Shown: positions 8,515-53,252 of the stretch, piece by piece
How positions within the stretch are numbered: position 1 is the first letter of the stretch
Layout: every line of letters starts with the position of its first letter
From: Marsupella aquatica
Taxonomy: Eukaryota > Plantae > Marchantiophyta
DNA length: 64,000 bases
Reading direction: 5' to 3'
NCBI GenBank assembly: GCA_973895155.1
Contig: OZ316894.1
Location: 14,025,580-14,089,579 of the forward strand
Made by a program: the position numbers and the translations under genes
Notes under the pieces: generated by a model
Seen by the model: only the letters and a program-made list of their open reading frames with translations
Databases searched by the model: none
What the model was told of the DNA's origin: nothing

Positions 8515-8953
8515 TGTTGGATATTTACTCTTATGTCTAGGTTAGGTATGACATGGTTGGTACAACAACGTGGGTTGGTACAACAACATGGTTTGGTACA
8601 ACTACATGGTTAGGTACAACTACATGATTAGGTACAACAATGTGGTTAGGTACAACTACGTGATTAGGTACAACAATGTGGTTAGGTTAACTAAGTTGCA
8701 CACTATATCATAAGAGGCACGTGTGCTTGGAGATGTAGAACCAAGGCTCATTATTATGGAGCCACTTGAGAGATAGGGAGAGCTTACACTGTGGAGACTC
8801 GATATAGCCGACGGGCTTAGAGTTCAGTAAAGCTCTCTTGTGTGTTCTCGTGGACGTAGCCTGAAGGAGGTGAACCACGTATCTCTTGTGTCGACTACTT
8901 GCATGTTGGATATGTTATGTGCTTATCGTTGCGATTATCGTCTATACTCAATA
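8515..8953 (+). repeat. 5' LTR of the copia element
   Basis: TGTTGG...CTCAATA. About 15 differences (hand count) from the 3' LTR. Contains 7 copies of an 18-bp GGTACAAC-containing unit (about 8559-8684). Confidence 0.95.
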
Positions 8954-8955
8954 AT

Positions 8956-8967
8956 TGGTATCAGAGC
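8956..8967 (+). promoter_or_regulatory. Primer binding site complementary to initiator tRNA-Met
   Basis: TGGTATCAGAGC lies 2 bp after the 5' LTR. Confidence 0.95.
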
Positions 8968-9702
8968 ATGCCTGGGAGGTGACGTGTGTTCGTGACGGGA
9001 TTTCGTGACGGTTTTTTCCAGCGTTGAGTGTTGGTGGATTTCCCGGAGTTCCGTCGCATGAAACTTGGAGTTTATGGGCTCAACGGATAGATCAGGGCAA
9101 GGGCTTTCTAACGGTGTGAAGAAATCGCTGAACGAAGCTCGTGGTGCGGAGAGATCTAAGTTTTTATCGTTCTGGATTTTGTTAAGAAAGTCGGCAACAT
9201 TCGTGTTCGACGGTTTTTCGGAGGAGGGACCAGAGTTTGTTTTCTCGACGGTGTGAGCTCTACAGTGAAGAAAGCGTTGCATGTTATAGCTCCATTTGTA
9301 GATCGGGACGAGCTGATCATTTCGGTAGCTGGTTTGTTGCCGAGTGTGTAACGAGTACGTCACAACGAGCAAAAGAAGCGTTCTGACTTTTTAACCGGCT
9401 ATGGAGTCTTCTTTTGCCTGAGCGGGGTTTCTTGTTGTTGCAATCGACTCGGAGGGAGAAGCGTCAAGTGTTTTGACTCAACGGAGAGATTGAGGCAAGA
9501 CAATTGTTTTGAGTCCGGGATTGGCTCTTGATGCGAAGAGGAAGGCTAAGAAAAATCATTTACCTTGTTGGACTTGGTGACGGCACCGAGTGCAATTCAT
9601 CAACATTCGTTGTTGACAAGCATTGGAAAACTAGGCTCGTGGGCTACGTGGCAATGATAACCTTTGAGTTTTTTGAGAAGTTAAGAAAAACATCATTTTT
9701 TC

Positions 9703-10692
9703 TTGATTTCTCACATGAGTGACTTGGAGGAGGGTTCTATTGAGTCACCGGAGAGAACAGAGGAGGAAGCAGAAGATCTAGCGGAATTGTGGTCACCGGT
9801 ATTGCGGCGAGTGACAAGAAAAAGGATGGGGATAATCAAGCTTGGAGGTCCCAAGTTTGAGGTTACAAAATACGATGGCCGCATGGACTACTTGTTGTGG
9901 GAGCGACAAGTGAAGGGGGTACTCCGGGCGACCGGGCTTGGGAAATTGCTGAAGGACCAGCCAAATGATGTCGACAATGATGATTGGCAGGACATGCAGG
10001 AGCAAGCTGTGAGCACCGTGATGCTCTATCTTCAACCTAATGTCATCAAGCAATTGGCAGACCATGTCAATTGTGCATCATTGTTTGCCGCGTTGGAGCA
10101 AAAGTACCATCAAAAGGAGCTATCGAATCGGCTCTACACATCTTTGAAGCTTATGAGCTTCAAGATGAAGCAGGGAAGTGCAAAGATTCAGGATCATATC
10201 GATGGTTTCAACGACCTGGTCGTTGATTTGCAAAATCTGGGGGAGGATTTGAGTGATGAGCGGCAGGCTCTTCACTTGCTTAGCTCTTTATCCTTGTCGT
10301 ATCAGTCATTGTCACGAGTGCTGCTTCATCGTGATAGGAAGACTATCACTTACAATGAAGTTGTAAGTGCTCTGTTGACTGATGACTTGCAGCAGAAATT
10401 GACCATGCCCTCTCAGCCATCATCGTCGTCTGGTGCTGCCTTGAATGTGAATCGTGGGAGGTCACAGAAGCATCCAGAGCACCACACGAATGGCAGGGGA
10501 AGAAGTAAATCTATGACAAGATTTGCTTCAAGGGGGAAGTCCCAAGAGAGGAAGTCGGTGGTATGCTGGAAGTGTGGCAAGACTGGCCACATTAAGAGGG
10601 ATTGTAAGGGTAAGGCAGCTGAATCTCCATCAGCCAATGTGGCTAGTGTTGATGGAGAAGTTGATTTACTCAACGATGAGTATGTTTTATGA
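9703..10692 (+). CDS. Copia gag ORF
   Basis: KFEVTKYDGRMDYLLW start motif, Retrotran_gag_2-like core, and a CCHC zinc knuckle CWKCGKTGHIKRDC. The exact start codon is uncertain. Confidence 0.92.
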   Translation: MISHMSDLEEGSIESPERTEEEAEDLAELWSPVLRRVTRKRMGIIKLGGPKFEVTKYDGRMDYLLWERQVKGVLRATGLGKLLKDQPNDVDNDDWQDMQEQAVSTVMLYLQPNVIKQLADHVNCASLFAALEQKYHQKELSNRLYTSLKLMSFKMKQGSAKIQDHIDGFNDLVVDLQNLGEDLSDERQALHLLSSLSLSYQSLSRVLLHRDRKTITYNEVVSALLTDDLQQKLTMPSQPSSSSGAALNVNRGRSQKHPEHHTNGRGRSKSMTRFASRGKSQERKSVVCWKCGKTGHIKRDCKGKAAESPSANVASVDGEVDLLNDEYVL

Positions 10693-10985
10693 AGTCAGGA
10701 GTATGCCCTGTGCACATCATCTAGGAGAGCAAATGATGTGTGGATTTTTGATTGTGCTTGCTCCTTTCACATTTGTTACATTCGCGAGTATTTCAATTCT
10801 TATTCTGTGTCAAACGGTTCAGTTTTGATGGGAAATGATCACTCTTGTCAAGTTGAGGGTATTGGGTCTGTAAAGATTTAAATGTTTGATGGCATTGTGC
10901 GCACAGTGTCCGGAGTCAGGTTCGTACCTGGCATGCGTAAGAATTTGATTTCACTCGGTGTGTTGGATACAAATGGTCATCAATG
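10693..10985 (+). pseudogene. Copia aspartic protease region, 5' of the CACTA insertion
   Basis: In frame after the gag TGA: WIFDCACSFHIC...MGNDHSCQVEGIGSVKI*MFDGIVRTVSGVRFVPGMRKNLISLGVLD. Contains an internal TAA. Confidence 0.9.
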
Positions 10986-13900
10986 CACTAGTAGAAACCG
11001 GGGCAATTTAGACCATACCTTATAGGACTATGCCCACTAAGTCCTTTTTCCATACTTAAAACGACTCGCACCCATTGCACCGGTTTTGTTGAAGACTAGA
11101 AAAGACTATGAGAGTTTTATGGTTCACTAAAAGACTATGAGAAGTAACCTTGCTACTTTGTGAAGGGTGAATAGTCTAGCACATCATGGGTAATGTTCAC
11201 TCTATGTTGAGGAGGGGTAATTCTCCTTCATCTTTGAGCCGAAAGCACCGACGTCTATCGAGTGCCAAAGAACTGCTGGAGATCGAGCGAATTCACACTC
11301 TCAGATGTGGGTCGTGTCAAATTGTTTCCTCCATTGATGGCAGCCTTCTGTGAGATTGATTTATACTGTGTGGCTATCTGGGAGTTTTGTCGACTCATTT
11401 GACACCGATACTCCCGTGATTTCCTCATACATAGTGCCACTGCCCCCCCCGCATTGTGTTCAATCCCTATAGCTTATAGCTGCACCACTCTTGGTGGCCC
11501 TTGCTCATGCCTTGGTTTTTTTTTCTTTTTCCCATTACAGTATACACCCCCTTCTTACTAATCAGGTGGATTAATTTAGTACTAGACAATGCTTTGACAC
11601 TTTACACTTACACTATGCTGACCTACTGCGCCTTCTAGTGCTTATTCCCTAGTTGTTACTTGTTGCATGGACCACTAGAAGAACGGCTTCGCAATCTTTG
11701 CCTGATCTGATGACCCTGGTTGAGTAACTCTTTGTTATTGCCTCCTTTGGGTGTTGAGGTTTTATGATGCCATTTGGCCTACTGGTTCCCCCATCCGTGG
11801 GGTTCACGCGGAATAAATGTAAAATTTCAAACAAATAAATAAATCTATAAAGAGGGTGATAGCAAGGGGCATAACTCATTAAATGTCCTTATTTGTGACC
11901 AAAAAGGTTTTGGGTTTAATGAAGTGGGGTTCATGGAGGTTGGACCATGGAGGGATGGTCAAGATATTCTTGGCCATTACTAAATCCATCTATAAAAGGT
12001 CAAGATGCACAAAGGTAGATTTGTACCGGTCCTTTTTCATACATTAGAGCTAGGTCACATTCTTGCACCGGGAATATTGCATTTTAGGACCGGATATAAT
12101 GTTGGGCAACCTTAATCCTGATTACGTCGTGCAATAAAATGTCACTACCGACCATGTATGTGCAAATATGACCATTCATTGCCTAAGTTGGCCATGCAGT
12201 AACACTTTGTAGCTTTGTCCCACTTTGGGTGACACTCAACGGCTCACTCAAACGGTAAGGCTGAGTGGCTTCCCCTAATTCGGTTTCAGGCACTAAACTT
12301 CACTTTGGGAGTCTCTTTGGAGTTTTCGCCATTGTCATTGAACTTAGAACGTGAGGGGTGGAGTGTTCGGGGTTTTACGTAGGGTTTTCCTTTCAGTGTT
12401 GCCCACTTTTTGCGACCATTGCGGAGTGAACTTCCCGCGCGTTATGTGCTTGTTTATGCTCTCGAGGAGCAGTGTTCAGGCAGTTGCAGTGATCTAACCT
12501 TGCGCTTGCAGTCTACTCATAGACCTGCATTCCTGCTCGATCTCCTTTAGGGACATTTAGTTTTTGGCTGGTAGGGCGAAGAAGGTTGTGGCTGTTGCAA
12601 CGTTCGTGAGGAGCTTGTCGGAGTTTGAGGAGTCGGAGGTTGGGGTTTCTTCAAGGTTTTGGGTGACAATCTCGGTCACAGTTGTGGTATAGACCCTTTT
12701 GCTGCACCCATAACGAGCATCGGGAGGCCGTGAGGCTCATTGGGAGGTCCTTCAGTTGTCAAGCTGCCGTTGAGCTGGTGAAGTTGCATGCGGGTTGCAT
12801 CTATTCTGCGTACACAGTCAATGTGGGAATCCATATTTTCATAGTGCTTGTTCTTGCAAACTGGGAGCCGAGAGTTTGGAGTCGGGAGCTAAGAAGGGTA
12901 TTGTTAGGCTTCAATTACTCTGTGGTTTTCTCCAGCTCCATGGTACAGTTTCAATGTTAATGCTTTGTCCTTGTGCTGGTCTAGGTAGCGCGAGCTTCTA
13001 CCTATTGCGCCCTCTTGCTGTAAGCGTATTGAGCTGCCAACTGAGTGATTCATACCTATAGCTGCTTACGCGTGATCAAGAGATTGAACAAATGCCTAGT
13101 GCTGTCCAGCAGGAGAAAACTCTTTTTGGTCACGATCGGGTGTTGGAATATAACTAAGTGCGGCAGAGCAACACGGGGAGCTGTAGAGTTGCAGACAAGA
13201 TGCAACTACAGAGGAGGCATTGGGAAGGACACAACGGTGTGGTGAAGGTACAAGGACCGTGGACCCTAACTTGTTTGCTGCCTTGGGAGGATCCGGAGAG
13301 CCCGAGGCGACATGCTTCATTGAGCCTGAGCTAGCTGAATCCAATCCAGGAGTTGTTGCGCTAAGGTGAGACTTTGAGTTTAGGGTTGCTTCAGTGTCCG
13401 AGTAGGTTTTCTCTTTGCGTCGGCAGCTAGAAGGTAAGCTCGGGGGCTTTACAAAGGGTTAGTGTTGCGGACTTTCCCTCCTGGACGTTGTGTGTCTTCA
13501 TTTGCAACTTGTTTGTGGACCTGTGATCCTGAGACTGTCAAAATTGTTGTGGCCGCACTGACAACTTGATGACGCGTTTTGTGGATGCACCGTTAGTAAT
13601 CGCGAGTACAGCTCTCCAACAATTGCACTTACCATTTTTGACCACCTTGCATGATGTCCATCCGTGGGCTGGACCCCAAGAAGTAGATTTCGGTAGATTT
13701 CGGTAGATTTTGTCTCTGCCCCCGGTCCTCATTTTGTGCAATGTCCGCCTGGCACTTGGTTCTTGATCCCTACATTATCGTCTGTCGCTCGGCTGCTTGC
13801 GGAAGGGATCAAACAGATTGGAGGTGCTTGGTCTTTTCATTTTGAGTGTCAGAGTTTAGGAGGACAGCTTGCACCATCGCCGACAAGAATGACCTGCTTG

Positions 13901-15381
13901 CAGAACAAGAGGGACGAGCGTGAGCTGCTTGCAGAATAGGAGATTGACCGCGAGCACAAGCTGCTTGAAAAATAGGAGACTGAGGGCAACCTGCTTCTTT
14001 GTTGCTACTCTGGTTGCGCTGCTACATTGGTTGTTGATCTTCACCCACCCACTTGCCTACTCAATTGACAGAGTACAGCTTTGTCTCTGCGTGTGTTATT
14101 GCTGTCTTTGTCCCTCCCCTTGACATTGTGGGCCTTAAAAGGTCAGTAAGTTGGCTTATGTAGTTTTTATGTCCCTCCGCTATGTCAATGCGTGTTTCAT
14201 TGCATCAGGGCATCAGTCGCTGTTTGCCTATAACCGGACTGTTCATTCTCTGTCCACTCATTTGATGTAATTCTTCCCATTGCCGCCCAATGCTATGGCG
14301 CCCATGCTACAATTTGTGGTTTTTGTCTAAGCACAAATCCTCTCTGTGCCTGGTCTCTGTGTCCCGTCATTTGGATTGATTGTGTAGACGTTTCCTCTTC
14401 TCCCAGTCCTTGTCATCCACCAGCCAAAGCACATTGGATTGTTTTCAAAGGAGGGCTGTGTAGTTTGGAGGGTTTGATCTATGCAGCGGATTTGAGCAGA
14501 TTGGCGGTTGTTAGTTTCTTCTTGTAAAACCTGTCTGTCTTTTCTGCTTTTGGCCATGCTCCTTCACTTCTTGCTGCAAGCTCAATGTGCTTCAGCTATG
14601 GCAATATTCACTTACCCTATCCCAACGGCACTACCGTGAGCTGTAGGACAGCCAACAGAAGCAGATTGTATCGATTGCATGTAAGTCAGGGTATTTTATG
14701 TATTGCGGAACAACTGTCCAAGTTTGCTGCAATGGCCGGTCTTGCGCAGCTGAATGAGCCAATTTCATTTTCCCTGTGCACTTCTATTTCTCAAAGAATT
14801 CCCTGGTCATGCTCATTTCCCCCAGAGTTAGAAAACAAAGAAGAAGAGCTGACTAATTGTAATTCCAATCCATATCCTGATCGGTCAAGGATTGTTCACT
14901 ACATTGGCCTTGTCATTGGCCGAGGTCACCAAATTTTGCTTGGTTTCATTCCTGTGGAGCACTGCTGTGATGGATTTGTCGTAGCATTCTGCAAACTCTC
15001 ACGGTTTGCTTATGGCCATTATTTGCAATTTGCTGCTACTAATATGTCTTCTTCTGAGCAGCATACACCAGAAGTAAGCAATAGTGGAGGTTTAACTGCA
15101 CATCAACACATCTAGTGAACTACCTCTCTGCTGCTCACTGGAGGGTGAGACTTTCACTCTTTCTGGATATTGTAGTTTGTAAGCAAGTTGATTAGGAGTG
15201 TTTCATGCTATGTTTACACTGTGACCCCTAGCTGGAACCAATGGAATGACACAGTGAGTGGGAACTGATAATTTAAGGTTGGTTGCTGTTGGTGAGGCAA
15301 GTACAGCTCCTGCTCACCTTGCTGATCGAAGGTGCTTATCAGAGGACGTGAACACACGACATCTCCACAAAAGCAACACTT

Positions 15382-15831
15382 ATGGTGAGGACCCGCAACG
15401 CTGAACATGTGCGGCTTGCACGCAAGGCAGAGATGTTGCGCCTTGAGTATGTCAGACTTGGGATCCTTCCAGCCCAGTCTGCATGGTACTTTGAGTACCC
15501 AGTTGTTGCCAGGAACAACTACAGCCGGCCTGTACCTGCTTCTCCACCCTTCCCAACATCCTTGGTATTTCTGTCTCTCATACATGACCCACCACAAATT
15601 AGGGCCCAAGGGTGTGTGCACAGTTGCCAATATGACTGTCCTGCCTGTAGGGCTTCTGGCCTAGAGTTGGATGACCGTTCTCTTGGATGTCGGTTTTTTC
15701 ACAGAGCACGATGTATCATCTGGAACCACTCGCCATCCTGCAGTGTGCCTGGCGATGTCACTTGTCCTGCCCTCCCAGACCCCACCACCGGTCACTTTGG
15801 TGTCTACACATGTTTGGATCACACGCTCTAG
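15382..15831 (+). CDS. Orphan Cys/His/Pro-rich 149-aa protein (CACTA cargo ORF A)
   Basis: Intact ATG-TAG ORF of the same length in element 2 (52031-52480), 138/149 aa identical. Hand count gives about 12 synonymous and 13 non-synonymous changes. Motifs include CxHxCxxxCxxC. No family recognised. Confidence 0.6.
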   Translation: MVRTRNAEHVRLARKAEMLRLEYVRLGILPAQSAWYFEYPVVARNNYSRPVPASPPFPTSLVFLSLIHDPPQIRAQGCVHSCQYDCPACRASGLELDDRSLGCRFFHRARCIIWNHSPSCSVPGDVTCPALPDPTTGHFGVYTCLDHTL

Positions 15832-16500
15832 AGGACCACTTGTCACACCGCATGCACAAACCAGAGACCATTGACCTATAACTTAACACTTTGACTTGAA
15901 CAGAGAGGATATTTACTTAAGATTTTGAATTATGACCAATTTTGGGTCCAGGGTTTAGGGTCAACAGTACATAACTTATCCTATTATGGCTGCACTAAGT
16001 ACAATATCCTAATTTAAGAGGCTAGCAAGCTCACTTAAAAGTCTCCTTTCAAAGACTGGAATTAATGGGCCATGTGATAACCTGGAAAAAGTGATTTATG
16101 CCTAACTTATTTGTCTCATTCACTATCATAGCCTATTTAGGATGTATAAATTACAACCCTGATCACAGTGCTTGATACCAATCCTGTTCAAAAAATGCCT
16201 GTTTTACATGTCACGATTGTTATATGTGATTCAAATGCATTAAATCTTGTTGCAGATCTCCTTTGGTGAATCATAGCCACAAAATTGAGGTGTAGGTGGA
16301 GCTATTGTACGAGGGGATCAGTTTTTAGTGTGGGCTCAACAAACCAAAAAGTATGTCTACTCTGCACATGTGTGTGAACATTTCATTGCAGTAGCAATTG
16401 CCACTCTAGTCTATATGCTACATTGTACTTTTTGTACACTGCACTAAATTGTATTGTCCGTGCACTCTGCTAAATTGTACTATCTGTCTCATGCGTAGGC

Positions 16501-17181
16501 ATGGCACGCCCTAAAATCCGAGCCAAGAAGCGGGGGACAGAGGTGAGCAACACAGGTGTAGTTGGGCCAGATGGTAGTAACTTCTCCGCAAGTCAGATTT
16601 TCCAGAAGGCAGCTCATTGTTGTGCCATTTGTGACGATGGTGGTGGCTTAGCCATATGTGAGGGCCCTTGCATGAGGCATTTCCACCTCAACCCAGAGTC
16701 TGACCTTGCTGCAGAAAACAACTGTCCAGGGGTGGGCCTCCCGTCAGTACACCAGGGAGGCTGGATGTGCACTGATTGTTTGGAGAAGCAGGCTAAGTGT
16801 GCACAGTGTGGGAAGTTGGGGTCTTATGAGGGCTCTGTTGATGCTCCACCACTTGTTAGGAAATGCCCTGACAGATATTGTGTGAGGTTCTTTTGTTTTT
16901 CATGTTTGCCCGATCTTGCCACAGCTTGCCCACTTCATAAGTGCAAGGCATGTGGTCAGCACGATGAAGATTTCTGGGTGGACATAGTCCACTGTGTTAG
17001 GTGTCCCACCATGTGGCACTTTCATTGTTTGAAGGAGCGTCAAGCAGAAGGCTATGCTTGTGACAGACACATCTATCATCACTCTGCACATGGTGTTGAT
17101 CGATGGATCTTCTATTGTCATCGCCATGCCATAGATCCTACTTTGCACACTCCCATGAGAGATCACATTTCTTGGCTTTGA
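16501..17181 (+). CDS. Stand-alone EDM2-like composite PHD-finger protein (CACTA cargo ORF B)
   Basis: CAICDDGGGLAICEGPCMRHFH, CTDC...CAQCGKLGS, CPLHKC, CVRCPTMWHFHCL and IFYCHRHAIDPTLHTPMRDH follow the remembered EDM2 PHD region (CAICDNGGxILCCEGxCLRSFH...CPLHKC...CRRCPKSYHRKCL...LIYCxxHEIDxxLLTPVRDH) in order. Confidence 0.9.
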   Translation: MARPKIRAKKRGTEVSNTGVVGPDGSNFSASQIFQKAAHCCAICDDGGGLAICEGPCMRHFHLNPESDLAAENNCPGVGLPSVHQGGWMCTDCLEKQAKCAQCGKLGSYEGSVDAPPLVRKCPDRYCVRFFCFSCLPDLATACPLHKCKACGQHDEDFWVDIVHCVRCPTMWHFHCLKERQAEGYACDRHIYHHSAHGVDRWIFYCHRHAIDPTLHTPMRDHISWL

Positions 17182-17781
17182 ACCTGAATAATATACATGC
17201 ATAGTGCACCTGATGTGGATACCTTGGAGATTGCAGACATTCCAATTTTGAGAAGAAGGACCTCTGTAGGAGAGGATGCTTAGGCAACAAGTACCCTAAG
17301 TTCATTACTTGTTCCTGGGTACATGCCTTCAAAAACTGCCCTTAAAAGCCTTCTAGGAACTTTTTTAACTCTGCAATCATTTTGATCACGACTTACATGA
17401 CACTGCTTAAATTAAATCAGGACTTCTCATTATGAGCATATAAGTTACAAGGCTATTTAATTTGCGAGAATTCCCTTAAAGTGTACCAACATTTTGTATT
17501 CTCATTGAATGTCTGCCCATTTACAACATCTGTATGTGGCATCACAAAACAATTGCACTTGTCACCTTCAATATTGTGAAGGCACATATTCAAACTATGA
17601 GGTGCATGCTTGCAAGTGTCTAGTACGTTTGTCCCAATATTTCTCCCGTTTGGAATCGGAGCAGAGACTCACCAGACGACTGGACTGGACCAAGTTATAA
17701 ACGCAGCATTTTAAGGGCCCTCCGATTATCAGGTGAACGCATTATCTTCCGGTCTGCAGTGATTAGGTGGCCCGTGTGTAC

Positions 17782-18630
17782 ATGGCCTCTAGGAAACGTA
17801 CAAAGGTTGACCACCCGCCTCTGTTGGCTGGAATCAAAGCCATTTTGATTCCTGGCCACTATGGGTTCACCCAAGTGAGTTGGCCAATCGTACAAAAACG
17901 ATTCTCAGAGTTCCATGGGACTGAAGTCAAGGACATCACTCCACAGACTACACATGTTGTTGCGGGGACATGGCTGGATGTGATGAACAAGTGGTCATGG
18001 TCCTTCATTGATTCTGCCATTACCAACCAAGGTCTAAAAGTAGTTGAAGTCTCTTGGCTGACCGATTCTGTTAAACATAGGTGTGTACAGAGTACTGAGC
18101 AATATGAGTTGTGGGAGAGTGAGGAGGCCACTGCAGAGGCTTTGGCTGAAAAGGAAGCCTATGAAGCAGCGGCAGAGAAACCCAACTTTGCTTCTGTCCA
18201 ATATGGACCTGTTGTCAACATAGGACACCATCCTATGCGTGCAGATGCTATATTGAATGAGCATGGCAAGGAGAGAAATACCATTATGAAGGGGTTCAGT
18301 GTGGTATTTGCAGAAGAAGGAATTGGGGAGACTAAGTGCAGACTGTACAAGTCTATAGTTGTTGAGCTAGGTGGGACAGTGGAGGAGAGTCTAACAGAAA
18401 CCTCCACTCATGTTGTAGGTCTGTCATACATGAAAATATGCAGAAAATTCTTTAAGACAACAGTGCGTGATTTTGTCATGAACAACAATCTTTGGGTGCT
18501 TTCCCCTGATTGGCTTCTGGAATCAGCAGCTAGAGGGAAGCGACAAAATGCTTGGGACTTTGATATTTTTGAGGCCTGGCCCTCCAAGATTCAGCGGAGA
18601 TGTATGCTTAGCAAAGGTGGGAGAGAGTGA
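17782..18630 (+). CDS. Tandem two-BRCT-domain protein (CACTA cargo ORF C), DNA polymerase lambda-like BRCT
   Basis: Two repeats of (L/F)xG..hydrophobic..GG/HG...THVV...W(L)xDS/ES, e.g. MKGFSVVFAEEGIG...ELGGTVEESLTETSTHVV...PDWLLES. ATG at 17782 is followed by a basic NLS-like RKRTK. Confidence 0.88.
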   Translation: MASRKRTKVDHPPLLAGIKAILIPGHYGFTQVSWPIVQKRFSEFHGTEVKDITPQTTHVVAGTWLDVMNKWSWSFIDSAITNQGLKVVEVSWLTDSVKHRCVQSTEQYELWESEEATAEALAEKEAYEAAAEKPNFASVQYGPVVNIGHHPMRADAILNEHGKERNTIMKGFSVVFAEEGIGETKCRLYKSIVVELGGTVEESLTETSTHVVGLSYMKICRKFFKTTVRDFVMNNNLWVLSPDWLLESAARGKRQNAWDFDIFEAWPSKIQRRCMLSKGGRE

Positions 18631-18806
18631 GGAGTAGGAGTCCCTCATATTTTTGTATAAAACACAATTTTGTAATAAATGTGATCCTTGAACTAACTCA
18701 TCTTGTCATGGTTGGTCGTAGTTGAAGTGATTATTGTTTCCTGCTGCGTGGGGTGTGACTGTGAATCTACTTGCTGGGCTCTGTTTGGCTGAAGACTTTG
18801 GTGGGT

Positions 18807-19340
18807 ATGCTGCCTCTTCCAGACCGTCAGGCCCTATGTAGGGTCCTCCTATGGGTTGCATCGTGCATGGCTACTGCTTGGGCTTACTTGTGTGGATTGG
18901 TAACCAGACAGAGTGTAGCTCCATCCGAGATAATGCCTGCAGACCTTGGATGTGTTGTGAATGCTGTGGTGAATGAGGATGCACAGTCGGAAGAGGACAT
19001 TTACTTTTCAGTAGATGAGTTAGACAAGCACGATGCTGTAGGTGGTTCCTTGTTGCCTGATTTGGCAGATGATATAGTTCTTACACATGTCTGGCCGAGG
19101 GTTCTTGTGGTGTCTGGCGCACAAGATATCTGCAAATATAGACTAATTAGTACCCAGTGGAGGGACTTGGTAGCAACATGTGCACCATGGAGGGCACTGC
19201 TGCCACTGCTTGTAGGCACGGATCGAAGACCACCATGGCATGAGCAGGGTTTAGACCTTGATGACTTAATATACATGCCTGAGTACCTCAGGGCTGAGTG
19301 GCATCGACAACAGGATTGGTATCCGTATTTGATGTGGTAG
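18807..19340 (+). CDS. F-box-containing protein (CACTA cargo ORF D)
   Basis: LLPDLADDIVLTHVWPRV...DICKYRLISTQWRDLV fits the F-box consensus LPxLPxDI...L.R.xVCKxWRxL. First ATG is at 18807. Confidence 0.65.
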   Translation: MLPLPDRQALCRVLLWVASCMATAWAYLCGLVTRQSVAPSEIMPADLGCVVNAVVNEDAQSEEDIYFSVDELDKHDAVGGSLLPDLADDIVLTHVWPRVLVVSGAQDICKYRLISTQWRDLVATCAPWRALLPLLVGTDRRPPWHEQGLDLDDLIYMPEYLRAEWHRQQDWYPYLMW

Positions 19341-19666
19341 TAAGATGAGGACATCTCACACCGGTCTCGCACCTGGCACCTGTGTCTATGACTATACATG
19401 ATTGGACTCTGATATGGTCATGGATGTACGTGCAGAGGCAGTACATGTGAGGACAGCGGAGGAGTTGACACCCTCAAACATTTAGGAATTTTGTCTCATT
19501 CACTTGAGAATAGGTACATGACTCAGGCACCTATATTTTTTGTTTTTTTGTTTTTTTGGAACGTTACGTATTTTGGCAAGTACAGTCGGGGGTGAAATCC
19601 TTAACAGGAAGTGTATTTTTCACTTGCATAATAAAATGACAGGGTGCTGAGTGCGTGTGTATAGTG

Positions 19667-22600
19667 ATGGCTCCAAGGTTGCCTCTTCACAACCCATTTA
19701 GGATTAGGCATCATGATTCTAAATTGTGGATGCGTGAACAAGCCCGGGCCGCCCAAGGTAGGAGTAGGAGGATGAGATGCCCATGCACACAATGCCAAGG
19801 ATTCAAGTCGTTGAGTTTGAACACTGTGCACCTTCACCTGCTGCGGCATGAAAGGCACCCTCGGTGGAGGGTTTGGAATGTACCAGCAGAAGAAGACTCC
19901 TCTGATGAAGAGTGGAGAGCTGACTTTGTGGATTCTAATACAGCTAGGCGTAGAGCCTACGTAGAGCAGGACATAGACTGTGTAGAGGATGGTCCTGGGG
20001 TCCAACATGAGAACGTGGATGACCAAGATGGAGATGCAGAGGCAGTCACTGAGGACGGTGGGATGGATGTCCCAAGAATGGTTCAAGAGATTTTTGAAGA
20101 CCTTGATGCTTTTTACGACACAGTGGAATCAGAAGAGGACAATGAACCGCAGCCACACATTGGCGACGGCCAAGCTCAACCTGACTTTGACATTGGGGAA
20201 GGTGCAGCAGAGAGGGAGTGGGTGTTTGGGGGCCCAAAACACATCAAAGAAGCTTGCATTCCTATCTACGAGGGGTCGAACTGCTCCAAGCTGGGTTTTG
20301 TCGTGTTGTTGTTGAACATCTGTGGCAATCACAATGTTCCCAATATATTTGTGACAGAGTTGTTGACCTTCCTGCGCCGAAATGTGTTACCAGATGGTAA
20401 TTCAATTCCAAAAAATATGTACGAGGCTAGGAAATTGATGTCTAACCTTGGGCTGAACTATGTGTCTATTGACGCATGCCCTGATGGGTGTGTTCTCTTT
20501 CGCAAAGAGCATGCAGATAAATTGACATGCCCTCATTGTGGTAAGGACAGGTACAAGAATGTAGGGAAATGTACACACCCTGCCAAGGTTCTTCGTCATT
20601 TTCCTCTCATTCCTAGACTACAACGTCTGTTTAGATGCCCTGCCATTTCCAAGCTGATGACATGGACTCCTGATAACAAGAGCAGTGATGGCCTGCAGTG
20701 TCACATTGGAGATTCCAACCATTGGAAATTTGTTGATGAGAGGTGGCCACAGTTTGCTACAAAGAAGCGGAACTTTCGATTTGGTCTATCACTGGATGGA
20801 ATAAACCCATTTGGAGACAAAAACAACCGTTATTCATGTTGGCCGGTTACGCTGCTAAATTACAACCTTCCCCCATGGATGACTACAAAGAGGTTTTTTG
20901 TCATGATGGTGCTGTTAATCCCTGGACCAGCTTCTGTGACCGAGCAATTCATAGATATCATGTTGGCTCCAGCAGTGGAAGAGTGGAAGACTTTGTGGAT
21001 AGAAGGGGTGTTAACCCATGATGTTCTGAAGGGGCTTCTTCGACCCAGCCCCTTTAGACTGCATGCAATTTGTTTGCTGGATATAGCAGATTACCCAGGC
21101 CATGGCATCATATCTGGACGAGTGACAAAGGGCTATGTGGGGTGCACACCATGTGGGAAAAATGTGACAAGTGAGTGGTCGCATGCCCTGCACAGTATGA
21201 AATTTCAGGGGCATAGAAGGTATCTGCCTGTTGATCATCCTTACAGGCACACACGGTCTCAAATTGCACACTTCAACAACAAAACAGAGCTTCGTGGCCC
21301 ACCACAGAGGGTCACCAGAGAGCAAGTCCTGAGGTGGGCAGCCAGGAAGGCTGATTGGGACAAGAGAAGTGCCACTGATCGAGAACCTGAGGATCCAGTG
21401 GTGAAACACGGTGTGAAAAGACAGACCTTGATGGACTTGGAGTTGGAGTACTGGAGGGTAATGTACTTAGCCTCCAGCCCCTGTATGATTGCAATTTTAG
21501 ATTGGAGCAATGGTGGATTGATGTTGGTTACAATCCTCCTATGTGGTTAATTAGTGTTTCTGTTGTTGAATTCTTTGCTTTGTGGAGTGCAGGAATTCGA
21601 GCCCAGCAAACACAATGTGGACGTCATGCACATTGAGAAAAATATTTGTGAGAGCTTGCTGAAGTTCTTGTCGGGTGAGAAAGATACAGGAGCAGTTCGA
21701 GCTGATATGCAACAGAAGGGGATTCGCCCTCACCTTTGGTTGAAGCCCCATGCAAGCAATCCCAATGTACTTCTCAAGTTCCAAGCTCCCTATGTGTGCA
21801 CACAGGATGAATGGAAGACATTCTTGTATAGATTGAGCTGTCTGAAAGTGCCCTCTGGCTATGCTGGTGCCTTCAAGAAGCATATTACAAAGAATAAACT
21901 TGGCAGTATGAAAACACATGACTACCATGTGTTGATGCAGCACATTCTGCCCCTATGCCTCAGAGGTCTCATGCAGAAACCAGTCCGTAATGTCATTCTT
22001 CGACTGTGCAATGTATTTCGCCGTATATGTGTGAAAGTGTGGGATCCCCAAGGATTGGAGCAGTTGAAGCAGGATGCTGCTTATGTCCTCTGTGACTTGG
22101 AGATATACTTCCCCCCTGCTTTCTTTGATGTTATGACTCATCTCCTAATCCATGTGGTAGAAGAGCTAGGGCAGTATGGGCCAGTCAGTACCAGAGGATG
22201 TACCCTATGGAGCGATACATGAAGTTGTTGAAAGGTCATGTGAGAACATACTACAGGCCAGAGGCTTCCATGGCATTGGGGTACATTAAGGATGAGACGT
22301 TGGGATTCCTAACAGAGTACATGGCTGGGTCTGGTGAAGCTATGACAAGAGTTTGGAAATCTGGTGAAGATGATGGAGTGAGTGGCGAGGTTGTTGAAGG
22401 TGTGGGACGTGCTGTTCAGCTGCCTGTTGCGATTCGAGACAAGGCTCATTCATATGTGCTGGCAAACACAGAGCCTATGCAACCATGGTGGAGGTGAGTG
22501 ATTGAATTGACTTGCCTTTGTTGTGATGCTTCTTGTCTGTTCCAAGGGTGATCTTAGGTTGTCATGTGTTGTTTAGACCTAACTATGCCTGTACCTCATA

Positions 22601-23366
22601 ATGCAGGGAATATGATATGCAAAAAGCTGCACACTCTGGGCAGCAGGATCCCTTCCCATAGTTCGAGCAGTGGATTCGGGTGACAATTCGAGAGCATAGT
22701 AGACATCACCCAGATATGGAGAAGGATTTGTATCTTCTATCTGTGCCACCACGATTGTCTATTCTGACCTACAAACGGATGAGAGCTTATGGAAATCATT
22801 ATCGAGTGAGGGATGAGCAGGGTGACCATTGTGTATCATATGATTGTGGTTTGATTTATGTGTTTGAGCAGAGAACCTCTGAAGAACAGAGGGGGTGGAT
22901 GAAGATGGGTTACGTGGGGGAGTTGACCGACATTTGGGTGTTGAATTATGGTAACACAAGTGTCCCAGTGATATTGATGAAGGGATCATGGGTGAAATCA
23001 GAGTGGCAGAGACCAAGGGCCACCATGAAGCGTGATCATGATGGGTTCTTGTTGGCCAATTTTAGGTCCAGAGTACCAGAATGGTCTGAGCCTTTTGTTT
23101 TCCCTAGCCAAGTTGAACAGGCTTTCTTTGCAGATGTGGAGGAGTCACATGGCTGGAGGGTGGTATGCCATAGCCAAGCACGGAACAGGCGGATGGATGG
23201 AAGTAAAGTAGAGTTCAGTTTGGATGACCATGCTGCATTCGAGCATCCTAGTCATGAGACTGTACTTCCAACTCGGGCAGGGACTGACTACATCCCCTTA
23301 ACATTGAGAGAGACATATGATGAACCTGGGCAAATGGAATATGATGAGGTTGATGATTTGCAATAG
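19667..23366 (+). pseudogene. CACTA transposase (TnpD/Tnp2: Transposase_21, DUF4218, DUF4216) of element 1; exons about 19667-21457, 21593-22493, 22607-23366
   Basis: Motifs RCPCTQC, IDACPDGCVLF, LSLDGINPF, YNLPPW, DVMHIEKN, MKTHDYH, FPPAFFDVMTHL and YPMERYM. There is a 1-bp deletion near 22195 (STR-WMYP) and an in-frame TAG at 22659-22661. Confidence 0.93.
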
Positions 23367-23539
23367 GCAACAGCTGGCGATTGGCAAGTATGAGGTTGAG
23401 GATGACTACCTGCACAGAGTCACATAACGGGAATTGCTGCCTGGAATGATGTTTAGGATAGTTGGATATGCATGAAATTGATTGATACTTTGAATTTAGT
23501 GTGCTGATTCTCCCTGTTTGGTTGTGGGTGCTGTGCAGA

Positions 23540-26500
23540 AGCTATGGGGGAAGAGGGTGATGACATGGAGACAGACATGGGGCTTGGAGAGTGGGGTGAA
23601 GAGGAAAGATTGGATATGGATGGAGACCCAGATGCAGGGGGCTCACAGAAAAATGCACCTGTGCAAGATGCACAGGGCCCTCATCAAGTCCCAGGTAGGT
23701 GGGCAGCTAGAGAGAAATCACATAATCCATACCCTAGAAGGAGCCAGAGTTATTGGCAAGGGACGCCTGATAATTATGATGATGACTATGATGGAGCAGA
23801 AGATGGATGGGATGAATATGAACACCCAGAGCGTGGTAGAGACGGGTACAGAGGGCAATGGAAAGGTGAGGAGGATGATTGGACAAGTAAGTGCCTTGTG
23901 CTAGTGATTTTGTGATGGTAGTAGAGATTTAGCTCAATATGCACTTATCTGATGTGTAGCTAGGGCAAAGAGTTTATCTTACAGGTCCATGAGTGTGGCA
24001 TGTACCTGTTGGTATGCAGACTCTGATTGGGACAATCACGAAAACAACAAAGGCCATCCACATTCAGATAGGAGGCAATCATTCACAGGCGGGAGAAACG
24101 CCCCTAATTCATCAAGACAAAGCAATAGGACAGGTGGTCCAGAACCATCTATGCGCCAAGGGAGAGGTAACTTGGTCATTGCAGAATTGCTCTGAAGTCC
24201 ACTGTATATTTGGCAGCGGGATTTATGATTCATACTTACCTAATGTAAGTGACTGTAAATGGATCCTGTAAATGTGCAGGGACTCCAGGGAGGTTTGGAC
24301 AATGCAATCCAGGCCGTGGGGGGAGATCAGGCCGTGGAGGGACCCCAGGCCGTGGGGGGACACCAGGCCGTGGAGGGACACCTAGTAGCGCTTCAGGGAG
24401 TACCAAGGCAGGAGACAGTAACAAATTTGGTAAAGTAGAAGTGAATTCCGAAGGTTGGATAACTCCCACATGTGATGGTAAGAACCGTTGGCATTCTGAC
24501 CTAAGAGGAGAAGTATTGCGTTGGTTAGATTTGAGCATTATAGAGTTTAGGAGTCAGAACAAAGCTGATTGGGCTGCTATCTGCAAGGACATTCTTGAAC
24601 GGTGGGAGTATGTTGGTAATGATGGTAAGGGCCCAGTTGAAGATTGCATATCAGATTATGCAATGAGGATTTTGAAACAAGAGAGGCATAGGTTGAAAAG
24701 GATGTGGATAGACAATGGTTCTAACAGGAGAATGCCACCACCCCCATCATTGGAACTGGATCAATGGACACGGTTAATCAAAGGGTTCATGTCGGAGGCT
24801 GGACAGAGCAAGAGTGAACTGATGTCAAATGCTCGAGGCAAAGTGAAACACCTTTCACAGGTTGGGAGAGGAAGTTATGCTCCAGTGAAAGAACAATTGG
24901 TAAGGCAGTGACATGCCTGATAGTAAGCCTCAAACTTATCATCTTGCTACCATTATTACATTTTCATTGACAATCAACACTTGGTTTCATTCATATGTAT
25001 GTTGATGTGGACTGCAGAAGAAATTGACAGGTGAAGAACCATCAGCACAAGAAGTGAGAGAGGAGTTCATGAAACAAAGGAGTGAGGTGACAAGTGTAAC
25101 TTCCAAACAGGTGATTATGTTGTAATTCTGTATGTTCTGTGACTATTTGGCCTTGAGCATCAGAAAGAAATGTAGTAGGAAGTAAGCAACCAGTTCTTGG
25201 GGACAGTTATCTGAGATATGTAAGCTGTGTTATGACAGGGAACTGTTACAACTCTCACAGAGATGTGTGAACGGTTGAAGTCATTAGAGTGTGGACTCCC
25301 TCGAGTGGAAAGTAAATTGGCTGATCGTTTGGATATTGTGGAGGCATCTATAGCGAACCTTCTTGCATCAGTGGAATCTAATTTCAAGCTTGTGATTGAA
25401 AAATTGGGTGGTTCCCAACCAAACAATGAGGGCAACATTGTACAAAGTGTGCCCTTGTTAACAAAAAAGGGAATTGGCAAATCTGACACAGGTATGGAAA
25501 TGACACCGGCCCATTGTTCATTGTGTCCTATGTTCAAATGTCAGAAGTAAGTTTTCATGAATTGAGTGAATGGTTTGAATGCAGGAAGAGTGGAGGCAGA
25601 GAAGGACCCTGTAATCAGTAAGCAGAAGGGCAAGAAGGTTGCTGAGACAGGTAACCTGCTATGATCCAATACATTACATTTGAAAAGTGCATGGAGTTTT
25701 GTGAAGCTTAAGCCGGTTGGAGGTAATCTTTTCTGTAAGAACTGGTTGGATGAACTGGGATCTGAAGTGACATCATGATTGATGTATCAGGTGATTCAAA
25801 GAGCAATAATGAAGAAGATGTGCCCAGTGCCTCAGTGACCATAGCCAAGGAGGTATCAGGTAAGCTGATGCTTTAAATTCCTCTATATGAATGTTGAGCA
25901 ACAATTCAGTGGTTAATAGATTCAACCTGAATATTGTGGTGTGTTTATTGATCAACAGAAGCAGACATGGAGCATATGGCAATGGCAAAGAAGGGGAAGA
26001 AGGCTGTTCATAATGGTAAGGAGATAGTGACAACTTTGTGGTTGGTGACATGTACATTTAGCACATGTGATGAGTGATTGACTTATGTTGGACATGACAC
26101 TGAATTGTAGTTGATGCAGAGTTGACAGACTCTCAACCAAGTGGGAGTAGGGTGAAGCGACATCGAAACTTGGGAGCAACATTGGATGCAAGTAAGATTG
26201 TAGATGCTTCAATTGAAGCAAGTACAATGTTGGCAGATACTGAGATGATGTCGCAGGGAAATCCTGCTACACAATCAGAAGTGTCAAATATGGATGCAGA
26301 TTCTTTGAAGAAGAGTGTAGCCAATTCTTGATCACCAGCACAAAACACTCGTGCCAAAGTCATGACTCGCAACCAAGGTATGAATAATGTCATGTATAAG
26401 CCACCCAGGAAAGCCAAGAAAAACAGCCAGGGTAAGGTGGAGGTGATAGCCACAGCAGAGCCAGTCCATAATCTTCTATCATGGGAGGATGACTCGCAGG

Positions 26501-26715
26501 TATGTGTGGGTACAGGCATTTTGCGACCGGATCATGCAAAATTCCATGGCAAAGTGGTCCCGGATGACCATGTAGTAGTGTTGTTGACTACAGTGATTGT
26601 ATCTGATTGTAATTTGCCATTTCCGAATAGAGACGATGATCCACCTCAGGAAATAATTGCAGATGCAGTAGGATCTCTTATGCTCTGGCCATCAGAGTGT
26701 GTTAGTCTGCAGTGA
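23540..26715 (+). CDS. Multi-exon TnpA-like (ORF2) gene of CACTA element 1; exon boundaries approximate
   Basis: Acidic/Gly-rich N-terminus, PGRGG repeats, core KNRWHSDLRGEVLRWLD...QWTRLIKGF...SELMSNARGKV...VGRG, and C-terminal FHGKVVP...LPFPNRDDDPPQ...DAVGSLMLWP. Homologous to the minus-strand gene at 60023-63814. Confidence 0.75.
24310..24381 (+). repeat. 18-bp tandem repeat x4 encoding (P/S)GRGG(T/R)
   Basis: CAGGCCGTGG(A/G)GGGA.... occurs four times. Confidence 0.9.
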
Positions 26716-27544
26716 CTGAATGCAAGTGTAGATAGCATCATGTGAATTGTGTCACATTTTGACATTGCCTTGGAAATATCCAAGAAATATTTGTACCAAT
26801 TTTTCCATTTGGTAAAGAGGATGAAGGAGACGTTGTGTGTGACATTGATATTTCTGAATTCTGTATGTATGAAACAAGTGATTGATGTCAAACTATGGCT
26901 CTATGGTGATTGTCTATGATACTTAAATCTATTTTATCATTTCAGTATTAGTGTGTATGGTATAGAGGAATACGTTGTGACCTTCTTTGTAGTCTATGAA
27001 GTTTGAATCTGTGAATTCATATTAGTGTACATGGTATAGAAGATGGATTTCTGAAACTATGTATTCTAATGTTAACATGATGAATGGTGAACTTATAGAG
27101 TGAGTTCATTCCAAGTACACAATAAAACATGAATGCAATATGTTATTTGTGCACAAGAGTGGGTTCATTCCAAGTAGTATAGTGGGGTCTTCATCACTCA
27201 TATCCAGTTGACATAAAAGACTTATACATACCCCACAAAGTATATTTAAAGACTACCCTCCATAACCTTTTTAGTCGTTCCCAACGACTCATCATCGCAG
27301 CCCATAAAAGACTAAAAACGACTCACCAAAGCTACCCACACAAAGACTAAAATAGACTGAAAATCCAGTCTATTAAACGACTTATAAACCAGTTCTATAA
27401 AGGACTCAGTTGATTATAGTAACAAAACATACGACTCGCAGTCCTATAAAGGACTAGAGTCCTTCCCAGTCGTTTCCAAGTCCTATACGGTACTGAATAG
27501 TCGTTTAATGGGGTCTAAATACCCCCCGGTTTCTACTAGTGATG

Positions 27545-30496
27545 GCAAGTAATTGATGGTGAACTTCAAGTCATGTCGGGAGAGATAGTGATTTTGAAGG
27601 GGCGCAGACAGAAGAATTTGTATGTGTTGCAGGGCAATACAGTATGTGGAGAGGCCAATGTGACCAAGTCTCACGAGGAAATGACTCAACTGTGACATTC
27701 ACGGCTAGGCCACATGAGTGAGAAGGGTTTGGCTATCTTGTAGAAGAATGGGCTCATTTCTGATTTGCAATCTTGTAAATTGGATTTCTGTGAGCATTGC
27801 ATTTTTGGAAAGCAGCATTGTCGTGCTTTCGGTGTTGGAACTCATCATTCCAAAGCGGTTCTTGAGTACATATGTGACGTGTGGGGACCATCCCCGACTC
27901 CCTCACATTCTGGAAAATTGTACTATGTATCCTTTATTGACGATTACTCAAGATTTGTATGGATTTATTTCATGACGCATAAATCTGATGTCTTGTCCAT
28001 TTTTACAAAGTGGAAGACCCAAGTAGAGAATCAGACAGGAAACACGGTTAAGTGTTTGGATACAAGGGTGAAGAGTCTAAGGTCAGACAACGGCGGGGAG
28101 TACACTTCAATAAAATTTGAAGAGTACTGTGCAGAACAGGGGATAACTCGTCATCTCACCACAGTTTATACTCCACAGCAGAATGGTGTAGCTGAGAGGC
28201 TCAATCGAACACTATTGGAGCGGTCACGGAGTATGCTGAGCCAATCAGGTTTACCACAGGAATTTTGGGCAGAAGCTGTCAATACTGCAGTTTATTTGGT
28301 AAATCTTTCTCCTTCTAGTGCAATCAATTTTAAAATGCCGTTTGAAATGCGTTATAAGCGGCAAGCAGACTATCATGGCTTGGTAGTTTTTGGAAGTGAT
28401 GCATATGCTCTCACACCAAAGCAGAATAGGACCATGTTGGATCCTACGTCCAAGAAATGTATTTTTCTTGGGTATCAGAGTGGTGTGAAGGCCTACAGGT
28501 TATGGGATCCTATTGCTTGTAAGCTCATTGTTAGTAGGGATGTTTCTTTCAATGAATCCAGATTATTGAAGGAGGGGGAGAATACTCAAGTCTCCCGTAC
28601 TGACAAAGGAAAATCTCCTATCCTGGATCTCGTTGAGGGGGAGATTGATCATGAAGTGCATGATCGGAGAGAAGGAGGTGCTCCAAGCATGGAGCTGGTT
28701 CTTGTGCTAGAGGAACAAAAGGAGTTTATTGATGCTGATGAGCAGCAAATGGATGTTGCTGAGCTTCAAATTGTACCAGTAGACGCAATTCAACCGGAGT
28801 CATCGTCTAGAAGAACATTTGGTCGTACTGTACGCGCTCCTCCTAGGTATGGACAGTGGGTTGATTCATCTCAACTGCAAGAGGATGATTTTGCAGCTGA
28901 TGATGAGGGTGATGCGTTAATTTTGGAAGAAGGGGAACCTTCTTCATTTCATGAGGCCAGTGCTTCAAAGGAGAAGCAGAAGTGGACTGCAGCAATGCAA
29001 ACGGAGATGCAGTCACTAAAGGACAACAAAACTTGGGAGCTTGTTAAGCTGCCTAAGGGTCAGCAAGTGGTGGACAACAAGTGGATTTACAAGCTGAAGA
29101 ATAATTCCACAGGAGGTGGATCAAAGGTCTACAAGGCTAGGTTGGTAGCAAAGGGATTCACACAAGAGAAAGGTGTGGATTACAATGAGGTCTTCTCACC
29201 AGTTGCTAAGTACTCTACAATACGACTATTGTGTGTACTTGTTGTAATGTTTGGTCTGTTGCTAGATTAGATGGATGTTGTCACAGCTTTCCTCTATGGC
29301 ACATTGGAAGAGGTGATCTTCATGAGACAACTGCTAGGTTTTGTGTAGAGAGGACAGGAGGAATTGGTTTGCAGATTGCTGAAATCCTTGTATGGGTTGA
29401 AGCAGTCATCAAGACAGTGGAACAAGCGGTTTGACGATTGGATTCGATCACAAGGTTTTCACAAAAGTGTATTTGACCCTTGTGTGTATTTGAAACCGGT
29501 GAAGAATATTGTCTTTGGGTTCATTGTTTTAGTACTTTATGTGGATGACATGCTTATTGCGGCCAATGATAGGTCTGAGATTGTTAAGCTTAAGGCACTG
29601 CTCAATGCAGAGTTTAAGATGAAGGACCTAGGGCCAACTAAGAGGATTTTGGGTATGGAGATCACTAGGGACTTGGAGGCTAGTAAGCTATGGTTGACAC
29701 ACAGCAGTTATGCGAGGAAGGTAATTGCTAGGTTCAACATGGGGGATAGCAAGCCAGTAAGTACCCTTTGGCTACACACTTCAAATTATCATCAGCTTTC
29801 TGTCCCACAGATGCGATAGAGAAGGGGCTGATGTCAAAGGTTCCTTATGATAAGGCAGTGGGAAGTCTCATGTATTTGATGACTTGCACTAGACCTGATC
29901 TTGCCATGGCTATGGGCAAGGTGAGTAGGTACATGTCAAATCCAAGGAAGGTACATTGGGAAGCAGTGAAGTGGATTATCAGGTACTTGAAGGGTACCGT
30001 GGATCATGGTCTTTTATTTGATGCGAATGCAAAGAATGCTAGATCATTGATTGGCTATGTAGATTCTGACTATGGACAAGATTTGGACCGAAGGAGATCA
30101 ACAACAGGATACGTGTTCACACTTGGCGGTGGATGCATAAGTTGGAGGTCTACTTTGCAGAAGTGTATTGCTCAGTCTACTACAGAAGCGGAGTATGTTG
30201 CAGCTGCGGAAGCAGCAAAGGAAGCAATTTGGTTGGATAGACTTATCACTGAAATGGGATTGCCATAGGGGAATGTGAAGCTCCATTGTGATAGTCAAAG
30301 TGCGCTCCACCTTGCTGTGAACCAGGTGATGGACAGCAGAGTGAAGCACATTGACGTCAGGGACCATTTTATCAGGCAGGGTGTGTCTGATAATTTGTTT
30401 GAGCTAGTCAAGATTGATGGTAAACTCAACCCGGCTGACGCATTTACCAAAGTGATTCCTTTGGAGAGTTTCTCTAGACATCGTGACGTATTGTAG
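27545..30496 (+). pseudogene. Copia pol (GAG-pre-integrase, integrase, RT, RNase H), with several stops and a frameshift
   Basis: HSRLGHMSE, CEHCIFGK, LRSDNGGEY, QQNGVAERLN, YKARLVAKG, LYVDDM, YVDSD, STTEAEY, KHIDVR and NPADAFTK. Stops at about 27693, 27741, 29268 and 30266, and a frameshift near 29765. Confidence 0.95.
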
Positions 30497-30699
30497 GTTT
30501 TGCAATTGCATCACAAGTAGAGTTTTCTTAACATTCATTGTAATTACTGATATATGCTCTTCCTCATTCCTATGTATAAGGCTACGGCTTAGTTCTGGTT
30601 TGCTCTAGTTAGAGAGGGAAACCGGTTTGGTTTTTGTCCAGAACTTCCCGCTGAGGGATCATATACATTGGCAGTATTACTCTCCCCTAGACCAGAGTC

Positions 30700-30709
30700 A
30701 AGGGGAAGA
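30700..30709 (+). promoter_or_regulatory. Polypurine tract
   Basis: AAGGGGAAGA lies immediately before the 3' LTR. Confidence 0.85.
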
Positions 30710-30710
30710 T

Positions 30711-31149: not shown

Positions 31150-31154
31150 TAATT

Positions 31155-53241: not shown

Positions 53242-53252
53242 CATGCGCAGGC

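Follow-up and report, generated by a model that had tools for sequence, protein, structure and literature searches.

A two-BRCT accessory gene shared by CACTA transposons of Marsupella aquatica, a possible adaptor or decoy for host repair proteins

The window analyzed here, a 64,000-nt stretch of Marsupella aquatica contig OZ316894.1 (14,025,580 to 14,089,579, forward strand; all coordinates are positions within this window), contains two different CACTA elements that carry a gene for a small protein with two BRCT repeats. The reading frame of this gene is under selection, while the protein itself is fast-evolving. The gene belongs to a three-gene block that is shared by distinct CACTA families, a feature that was absent from the first-pass annotation of this DNA. 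We tentatively favor the reading, to which we assign slightly less than an even chance, that the BRCT ORF, an accessory gene free of catalytic domains, encodes a nuclear adaptor or decoy which, where transposition leaves breaks and gaps, engages end-repair proteins of the host.

The ORF of element 1 extends on the plus strand from the ATG at 17782 to the TGA at 18630 (17782..18630), is intronless and encodes 282 aa. Pfam detected two stretches of PF00533 (BRCT) above the cut-off (E 6e-14), likewise two above the cut-off in the copy of element 2 (54526-55398), and gave BRCT alone as domain in the window copies and their relatives. Using a 17-row alignment as input for the 282-aa protein, AlphaFold2 predicted two BRCT folds (about residues 12-111 and 166-267, pLDDT mostly >90), a helix at 114-132 and disorder at about 135-162. 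With a pTM of 0.48, the model does not fix how the two domains are placed relative to each other. Repeat 1 (17815..18114, plus strand) contains a Trp-rich helix region with W64, W71 and W73 which the alignment marks as family-specific. It is followed by the predicted helix (18121..18177, plus strand), in which T117 and E123 are conserved, and by the disordered linker. Repeat 2 (18277..18582, plus strand) is the more Pol-X-like of the two repeats. The repeats share 24% identity over 71 residues. The four-stranded sheet, the three helices and the G-G, T-H-V and Trp signatures of the BRCT superfamily are all present, and the fold matches the PARP4 BRCT with a Z of 15.2 and an rmsd of 1.5 A over 93 residues. 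The first-pass annotation had proposed two BRCT repeats, to be given up if no BRCT fold were predicted, and an N-terminal basic patch; the repeats are borne out by both Pfam and AlphaFold2, and the patch (RKR / KRRK) was seen in both window copies. Its third structural claim, an acidic helical linker, stood in part: the helix is predicted and, in the two window copies, has an acidic net charge (-6 and -7), but across 16 first-repeat rows its charge ranges from -7 to +3. Acidity of the linker was consequently rejected as a family trait.

The same annotation had placed the ORF inside a cut-and-paste transposon, and inspection of the ends together with the Transposase_21 match confirmed a CACTA element. 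Element 1 comprises 16.6 kb (10986-27541) and has CACTA-type terminal inverted repeats (TIRs), the first 18 nt of which are identical. The left TIR begins at 10986 behind an ATG target-site duplication at 10983-10985 (together 10983..11014, plus strand), and the right TIR ends at 27541 and is followed by the second ATG at 27542-27544 (27512..27544, minus strand). The joints across the element were recovered in contigs of all four sequencing runs compared. The gene order is ORF-A, triple PHD, BRCT, F-box-like ORF, TnpD and TnpA. ORF-A (15352..15831, plus strand, first ATG at 15382) is Cys/His-rich and had no match in Pfam, NCBIfam or PDB; in NCBIfam, none of the six proteins searched had a match. 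The triple-PHD ORF (16501..17181, plus strand) is intronless and contains NSD-type PHD fingers, with matches to three PHD families of Pfam, all below the cut-off; it may resemble the PHD region of EDM2. The F-box-like ORF (18765..19340, plus strand; Pfam E 0.086, below the cut-off) is absent from element 2. TnpD (19640..23366, plus strand) consists of several pieces with inferred introns and is frameshifted near 22195 relative to the contigs of all four runs. The TnpA-like region (24249..26715, plus strand) matched Transposase_24 with an E of 0.045, below the cut-off. Pfam matches on the element were Transposase_21 (E 2e-58) and DUF4218 (E 2e-11), and DUF4216 and Transposase_24 were matched below the cut-off. 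With TIRs, a 3-bp target-site duplication, TnpD and TnpA present, the assignment of element 1 to CACTA/En-Spm is confirmed. The element sits within a Copia LTR retroelement (8514..31154, plus strand; LTRs 8514-8956 and 30710-31154, 96.4% identical) and hence moved later than the Copia insertion. In sequencing run X1 the left arm (11172-14100) was found at a contig depth of about 450-550 and the cassette and transposase part at about 1800-2000, and the lower value hints at copies with variable left arms.

Element 2 carries the same block of ORF-A, PHD and BRCT genes at 52001..55398 on the plus strand (ORF-A 52001-52480, PHD 53253-53933, BRCT 54526-55398). Its BRCT protein has 290 aa and ends in an acidic tail, and an F-box-like ORF is not part of this element. 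A probable left TIR, unlike that of element 1, was located at 47445..47475 (plus strand), the partner end lying outside the window. TnpD of element 2 (55907..59167, plus strand) is 56-74% identical in aa sequence to that of element 1 and is interrupted at 59168 by the end of a third CACTA. A single family duplicated within the window was considered and rejected, as the TIRs differ and the dS of TnpD is saturated. Between the two elements dS amounts to 0.13 for ORF-A, 0.30 for PHD and 0.54 for BRCT, whereas it ranges from 1.8 to saturated for TnpD. ORF-A is 92% identical between the two families, and the identity of the spacers falls likewise along the cassette, from 88% to 71%. Since the dS within the cassette is 0.13-0.54 and that of TnpD at least 1.8, the block appears to have been exchanged between two old families, and from these sequences it was probably swapped as a cassette; the exchange most likely took more than one step. 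A stepwise nucleotide identity of 94%, 89% and 73% was observed between 15200-18780 and 51870-55580, alongside saturated transposases. Contigs that match the BRCT ORF almost perfectly had a depth of 1767-1931 in run X1, compared with 1817-1949 for TnpD and 1766-2073 for TnpA, and contigs of both element types were present at about 1600-1900. These depths, which are not copy numbers, hint that amplified families carry the BRCT gene as one of their regular components.

The comparison of the two BRCT copies bears directly on the selection that the first-pass annotation had proposed from an open frame at about 40% aa divergence. The measured divergence is 41% (59% aa identity over 268 codons), and the proposed long-term selection held up. 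Omega of the BRCT ORF was 0.54 by NG86 (bootstrap CI 0.39-0.76) and 0.62 in the GY94 codon model, with an LRT p=0.012 against neutrality; in the codon model the other genes gave 0.28 (PHD), 0.42 (ORF-A) and 0.06-0.16 (TnpD). At both divergences simulated, not one of 3000 neutral simulations left the two BRCT frames open, and together with the Pfam BRCT matches this excludes a chance ORF. The BRCT ORF differs between the elements by a single indel of 9 nt, the adjoining spacer by 15 indels, 9 of which are not multiples of three. At the nucleotide level the ORF, with 72.8% identity, hardly exceeds the spacer with 70.7%, which, read with the selection data, indicates that frame and fold are kept while the surface is quickly changing. 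Among the 40 of 84 variant entries listed, 35 in the ORF were classified (11 synonymous, 24 non-synonymous, 0 stops), and the three ORF indel entries sum to whole codons. Both copies retain an AATAAA-type signal past the stop and an AG shortly upstream of the ATG, which fits with the BRCT ORF being a transcribed unit.

A search of 1.84 billion representative proteins returned 17 hits. Sixteen of them are small, uncharacterized one- or two-BRCT proteins with 28-62% identity, recorded as 'hypothetical' or 'BRCT domain', and the remaining one, TOPBP1-like with an E of 5e-4, is the sole host-type match. An annotated host gene with the two-BRCT architecture was not found among the 17 hits and their cluster members. 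A single-protein homologue search yielded 1 hit among 771 candidates. Profile searches gave 5 weak hits (BRCA1/BARD1-like, microcephalin and FCP1) among 7997 proteins of 563-2000 aa and, in a test that is insensitive, 2 hits among 4295 proteins of 61-562 aa, one of the two being a query row. No relatives were found in viral contigs and prokaryote genomes, and the ESM Atlas returned generic BRCT clusters (under 0.9). The locus of relative P0022 is a single 1404-bp contig that is intronless, has a premature stop and is without a neighbor gene. By sequence, the sixteen relatives define an old family, of which the window copies alone are placed in transposons.

In a tree of 38 repeats, which omits near-duplicates and the short fragments P0010, P0012, P0015, P0018-P0020, P0023 and P0024 and in which Pol lambda is absent, all 16 first repeats group in a single clade (97/98), and the second repeats fall outside it. 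This topology implies that the duplication is older than the radiation of the family; the family is separated only weakly (72/87) from 12 host repeats. Among the first repeats W64 and W73 are present in 16/16 and W71 in 13/16, and Y216, C220 and R229 are kept in 9-10 of 11 second repeats. The spacing from His to Trp is 34-36 in all 27 family repeats and 27-34 in the outgroup. Eight of the ten full-length members possess an acidic tail. This C-terminal tail is Ser/Thr-rich, was recorded at 55330-55398 and in P0001, P0004, P0005, P0022 and P0030, and is missing from element 1.

The origin of the BRCT is less clear-cut. The first-pass annotation had linked repeat 2 to DNA polymerase lambda, and the profile comparison that it suggested gave a divided result. 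With a profile of five second-repeat sequences, built after the results of other searches, the human Pol lambda BRCT (2jw5) was tied for best, scoring 32.2 bits over profile positions 8-100; BRCA1 BRCT1 was level (31.5-32.1 bits) over positions 35-99 only, and REV1 (26.9), LIG4 (19.6), PARP4 (19.1) and XRCC1 (15.0 bits) scored lower. With a mixed-repeat profile, however, human Pol lambda fell below REV1 (35.1), PARP4 (34.0) and BRCA1, and single-sequence PDB searches favored BRCA1, REV1, PARP4 or Rad4. Fold searches placed PARP4 (Z about 15) and XRCC1 (Z about 14) first, and Pol lambda in mid-rank with a Z of 10.8-11.0 (positions 24 and 27 of the 50 matches listed; rank 34 in Foldseek); in one further fold search it was not among the 50 matches listed. 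Of all these PDB comparisons (two with profiles, five with single sequences and four by fold), a single one had Pol lambda in first or joint first place. Repeat 2 may resemble the BRCT of plant Pol lambda; plant Pol lambda itself was found neither among the 17 representative hits nor in the profile searches of 7997 and 4295 candidates.

A second line of comparison is offered by the residues that contact Ku. According to the cited parts of two studies, human Pol lambda docks on Ku via helix 1 of its BRCT with R57 and L60 (PMC12056208), R55 also takes part in the contact (PMC12910108), and the Ku-binding residues of this helix are R55, R57, L60 and F61 (PMC12056208, PMC12910108). In an ungapped mapping, inferred from the match ranges, the human positions 55/57/60/61 correspond to E183, K185, L188 and Y189 in repeat 2 of the window protein. 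Under the same mapping, the R57 position is basic in 6/10 second repeats, the L60 position is hydrophobic in 5/10, and equivalents of both R57 and L60 occur in 3/10, all from one clade; at the position of R55 the two window copies have Glu. The N-terminal BRCT of Pol X (Pol lambda; PDB 2jw5, 9g9l) shares with the ORF the common fold and a basic N-terminal patch ahead of the BRCT. In contrast to Pol lambda, the ORF has two repeats instead of one, keeps the Ku-contact residues in part and stops 15 residues past repeat 2, so that the attached 8-kDa and polymerase domains are absent. Judged from these comparisons, the chances that the captured BRCT derives from the N-terminus of Pol X (Pol lambda) appear about evenly balanced.

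The adaptor or decoy reading would combine these observations as follows. One BRCT, plausibly from the N-terminus of Pol lambda, may have been captured and, ahead of the radiation of the family, duplicated; repeat 2 would have retained more of the ancestral surface, and repeat 1 would have evolved its Trp-rich surface. The protein could then occupy the Pol-lambda-type docking site on Ku/XRCC4-Lig4, and this occupation would alter gap-filling at excision and insertion sites. In Arabidopsis, AtPol lambda is reported to bind Lig4/XRCC4 via its BRCT and is linked to the repair of transposon excision sites, as far as the cited passages describe it (PMC4444747). In the cited portion of the work on human Pol lambda, a catalytically dead enzyme is dominant-negative through the BRCT residue R57, and BRCT mutants impair gap-filling in human cells and spare direct end-joining (PMC12056208). 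Because direct end-joining is spared, a BRCT-only decoy is expected to change fill-in and not to abolish NHEJ. A wholesale shut-off of NHEJ that favors templated restoration of the donor site, the example given in the first-pass annotation, is a quite unlikely variant of this reading; the Ku-contact positions, too, vary across the family. The complete account, in which CACTA families have long carried and traded a cassette that combines a histone reader with a duplicated Pol-lambda-derived BRCT decoy on Ku/XRCC4-Lig4, the latter steering excision repair and raising copy number, seems improbable when taken with all its parts.

The neighboring PHD gene leads to a different explanation, which we consider rather unlikely but the first to be weighed, namely that the BRCT protein belongs to a module for chromatin control or anti-silencing. 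In this module the PHD protein would read histone marks of the element, and the BRCT protein would recruit base-excision or demethylation factors (XRCC1-like) or other scaffolds, so that expression is sustained. The BRCT gene is indeed accompanied by a triple-PHD gene under stronger selection, as the omega values given above indicate, and the BRCTs of XRCC1 and PARP4 are the best fold matches. However, the fold rank at 12-22% identity shows neither ancestry nor partner, and XRCC1 is poor by sequence, with only 15 bits. EDM2, which the PHD ORF may resemble, is described in the cited text as binding H3K9me2 and suppressing premature polyadenylation (PMC7529245), and anti-silencing by TnpA of Spm is stated, in the part of the preprint that we cite, to require the ROS1/DML base-excision demethylases (bioRxiv 10.64898/2026.08.24.746577). 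A kept frame combined with fast protein evolution would also fit genetic conflict.

Alternatively, the BRCT gene could be a passenger, that is, a host gene or retrocopy captured in the manner of Pack-CACTA, conserved owing to an earlier host function and now hitchhiking. The omega of 0.62 is weak beside that of TnpD, element 1 lacks the tail of most full-length members, many relatives are single-repeat fragments, and L001 has a premature stop. These points are outweighed in our view, and we regard a passenger as quite improbable: both copies kept the frame through a dS of 0.54, a distance at which a neutrally drifting sequence would nearly always have lost it, the 17 hits and their cluster members include no annotated host gene of this architecture, and a transposase is encoded, so that the elements are not Pack-TYPE by the definition given in the cited section (PMC8903248).

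In canonical tandem BRCTs a Ser/Thr at the end of strand 1 forms the phosphate pocket. A phosphopeptide-reading tandem BRCT of the BRCA1/TOPBP1/Rtt107 type, which would sense checkpoint signaling and time or shield transposition, is very unlikely in spite of the top whole-sequence profile scores for the multi-BRCT proteins Rtt107, BRCA1 and Rad4 and the TOPBP1-like library hit, since these scores sum several domains, the linker of about 55 aa with disorder, the low pTM and an rmsd of 12-20 A to solved tandems speak against a fixed arrangement (the 17-row alignment may be too shallow for packing), and the pocket Ser/Thr occurs in 1/25 family repeats vs 7/12 outgroup repeats. The pocket column (E179) has Thr in 1/10 second repeats and Ser, offset by a loop insertion, in 1/15 first repeats; neither window repeat has Ser/Thr there.

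Among known systems, the Plavaka elements of red algae (EnSpm superfamily) come closest in that they likewise encode a transposase and carry a three-gene accessory cassette, PAG1-3, which moves between families (bioRxiv 10.1101/2025.02.11.637652). In the portion of that preprint cited here the PAGs are an unknown protein, a methylase/SET protein and a ParB/2OG oxygenase, with no mention of BRCT or PHD (bioRxiv 10.1101/2025.02.11.637652). The present cassette differs by its reader and adaptor domains and by its location in a plant-type TnpD/TnpA element, and a Pfam scan of 24 window ORFs gave no match to SET/methylase or 2OG-oxygenase genes. VANC of VANDAL (Mutator) and TnpA of Spm are also element-encoded and act on the host machinery for the element, but both are described in the cited excerpt as sequence-specific DNA-binding anti-silencing factors (bioRxiv 10.64898/2026.08.24.746577), whereas the BRCT ORF has protein-interaction domains and is present in addition to TnpA. 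Pack-CACTA elements likewise combine CACTA ends with sequence related to cellular genes; Pack-TYPE elements as characterized in the cited section are non-autonomous and carry gene fragments (PMC8903248), whereas here a transposase is encoded and whole cargo ORFs are under purifying selection. An assignment to Pack-CACTA was rejected, as TnpD is present in both elements. A BRCT gene in CACTA/En-Spm elements was not found in the openly accessible literature searched, although a survey of 962 Spm-encoded structures may list BRCT domains in its supplement (bioRxiv 10.64898/2026.08.24.746577); a two-BRCT accessory gene of CACTA elements has apparently not been described so far.

The accessory genes that the cited literature describes for eukaryotic DNA transposons, as far as the passages used here extend, target DNA methylation or histones. 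A gene with BRCTs alone that selection maintains would extend the arms race between host and transposon to DNA repair, the step at which the fate of a cut-and-paste element is settled: loss, a footprint or restoration by copying. With one protein of 282 aa, the control of a transposon over the repair of its own breaks becomes testable, and the same protein could offer a compact means of shifting the outcome of repair when plant genomes are edited. The exchange of the cassette between families would mean that CACTA elements evolve as modular units, and the triple-PHD ORF (16501-17181, 53253-53933) is a candidate for a transposon-encoded histone reader.

Several further features were noted in the right part of the window. 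The third CACTA (59168-64000) is an end piece that is inserted in inverted orientation into TnpD of element 2; it contains TnpA-like ORFs on the minus strand (60023-60877 and 61529-62182), and its Transposase_24 match is stronger (E 1.5e-4) than that of element 1. Degenerate tandem repeats are located at 48744-48976, with units of 12-15 nt inside element 2, and at 42657-44149, with units of about 35 nt near 43 kb. A MITE-like inverted repeat of 57 nt (93% complementary, 45-nt loop) lies at 45550-45708. An ORF with a C2 domain (41002-42144, minus strand, Pfam E 2e-17) probably belongs to a host gene that lies between the nested elements.
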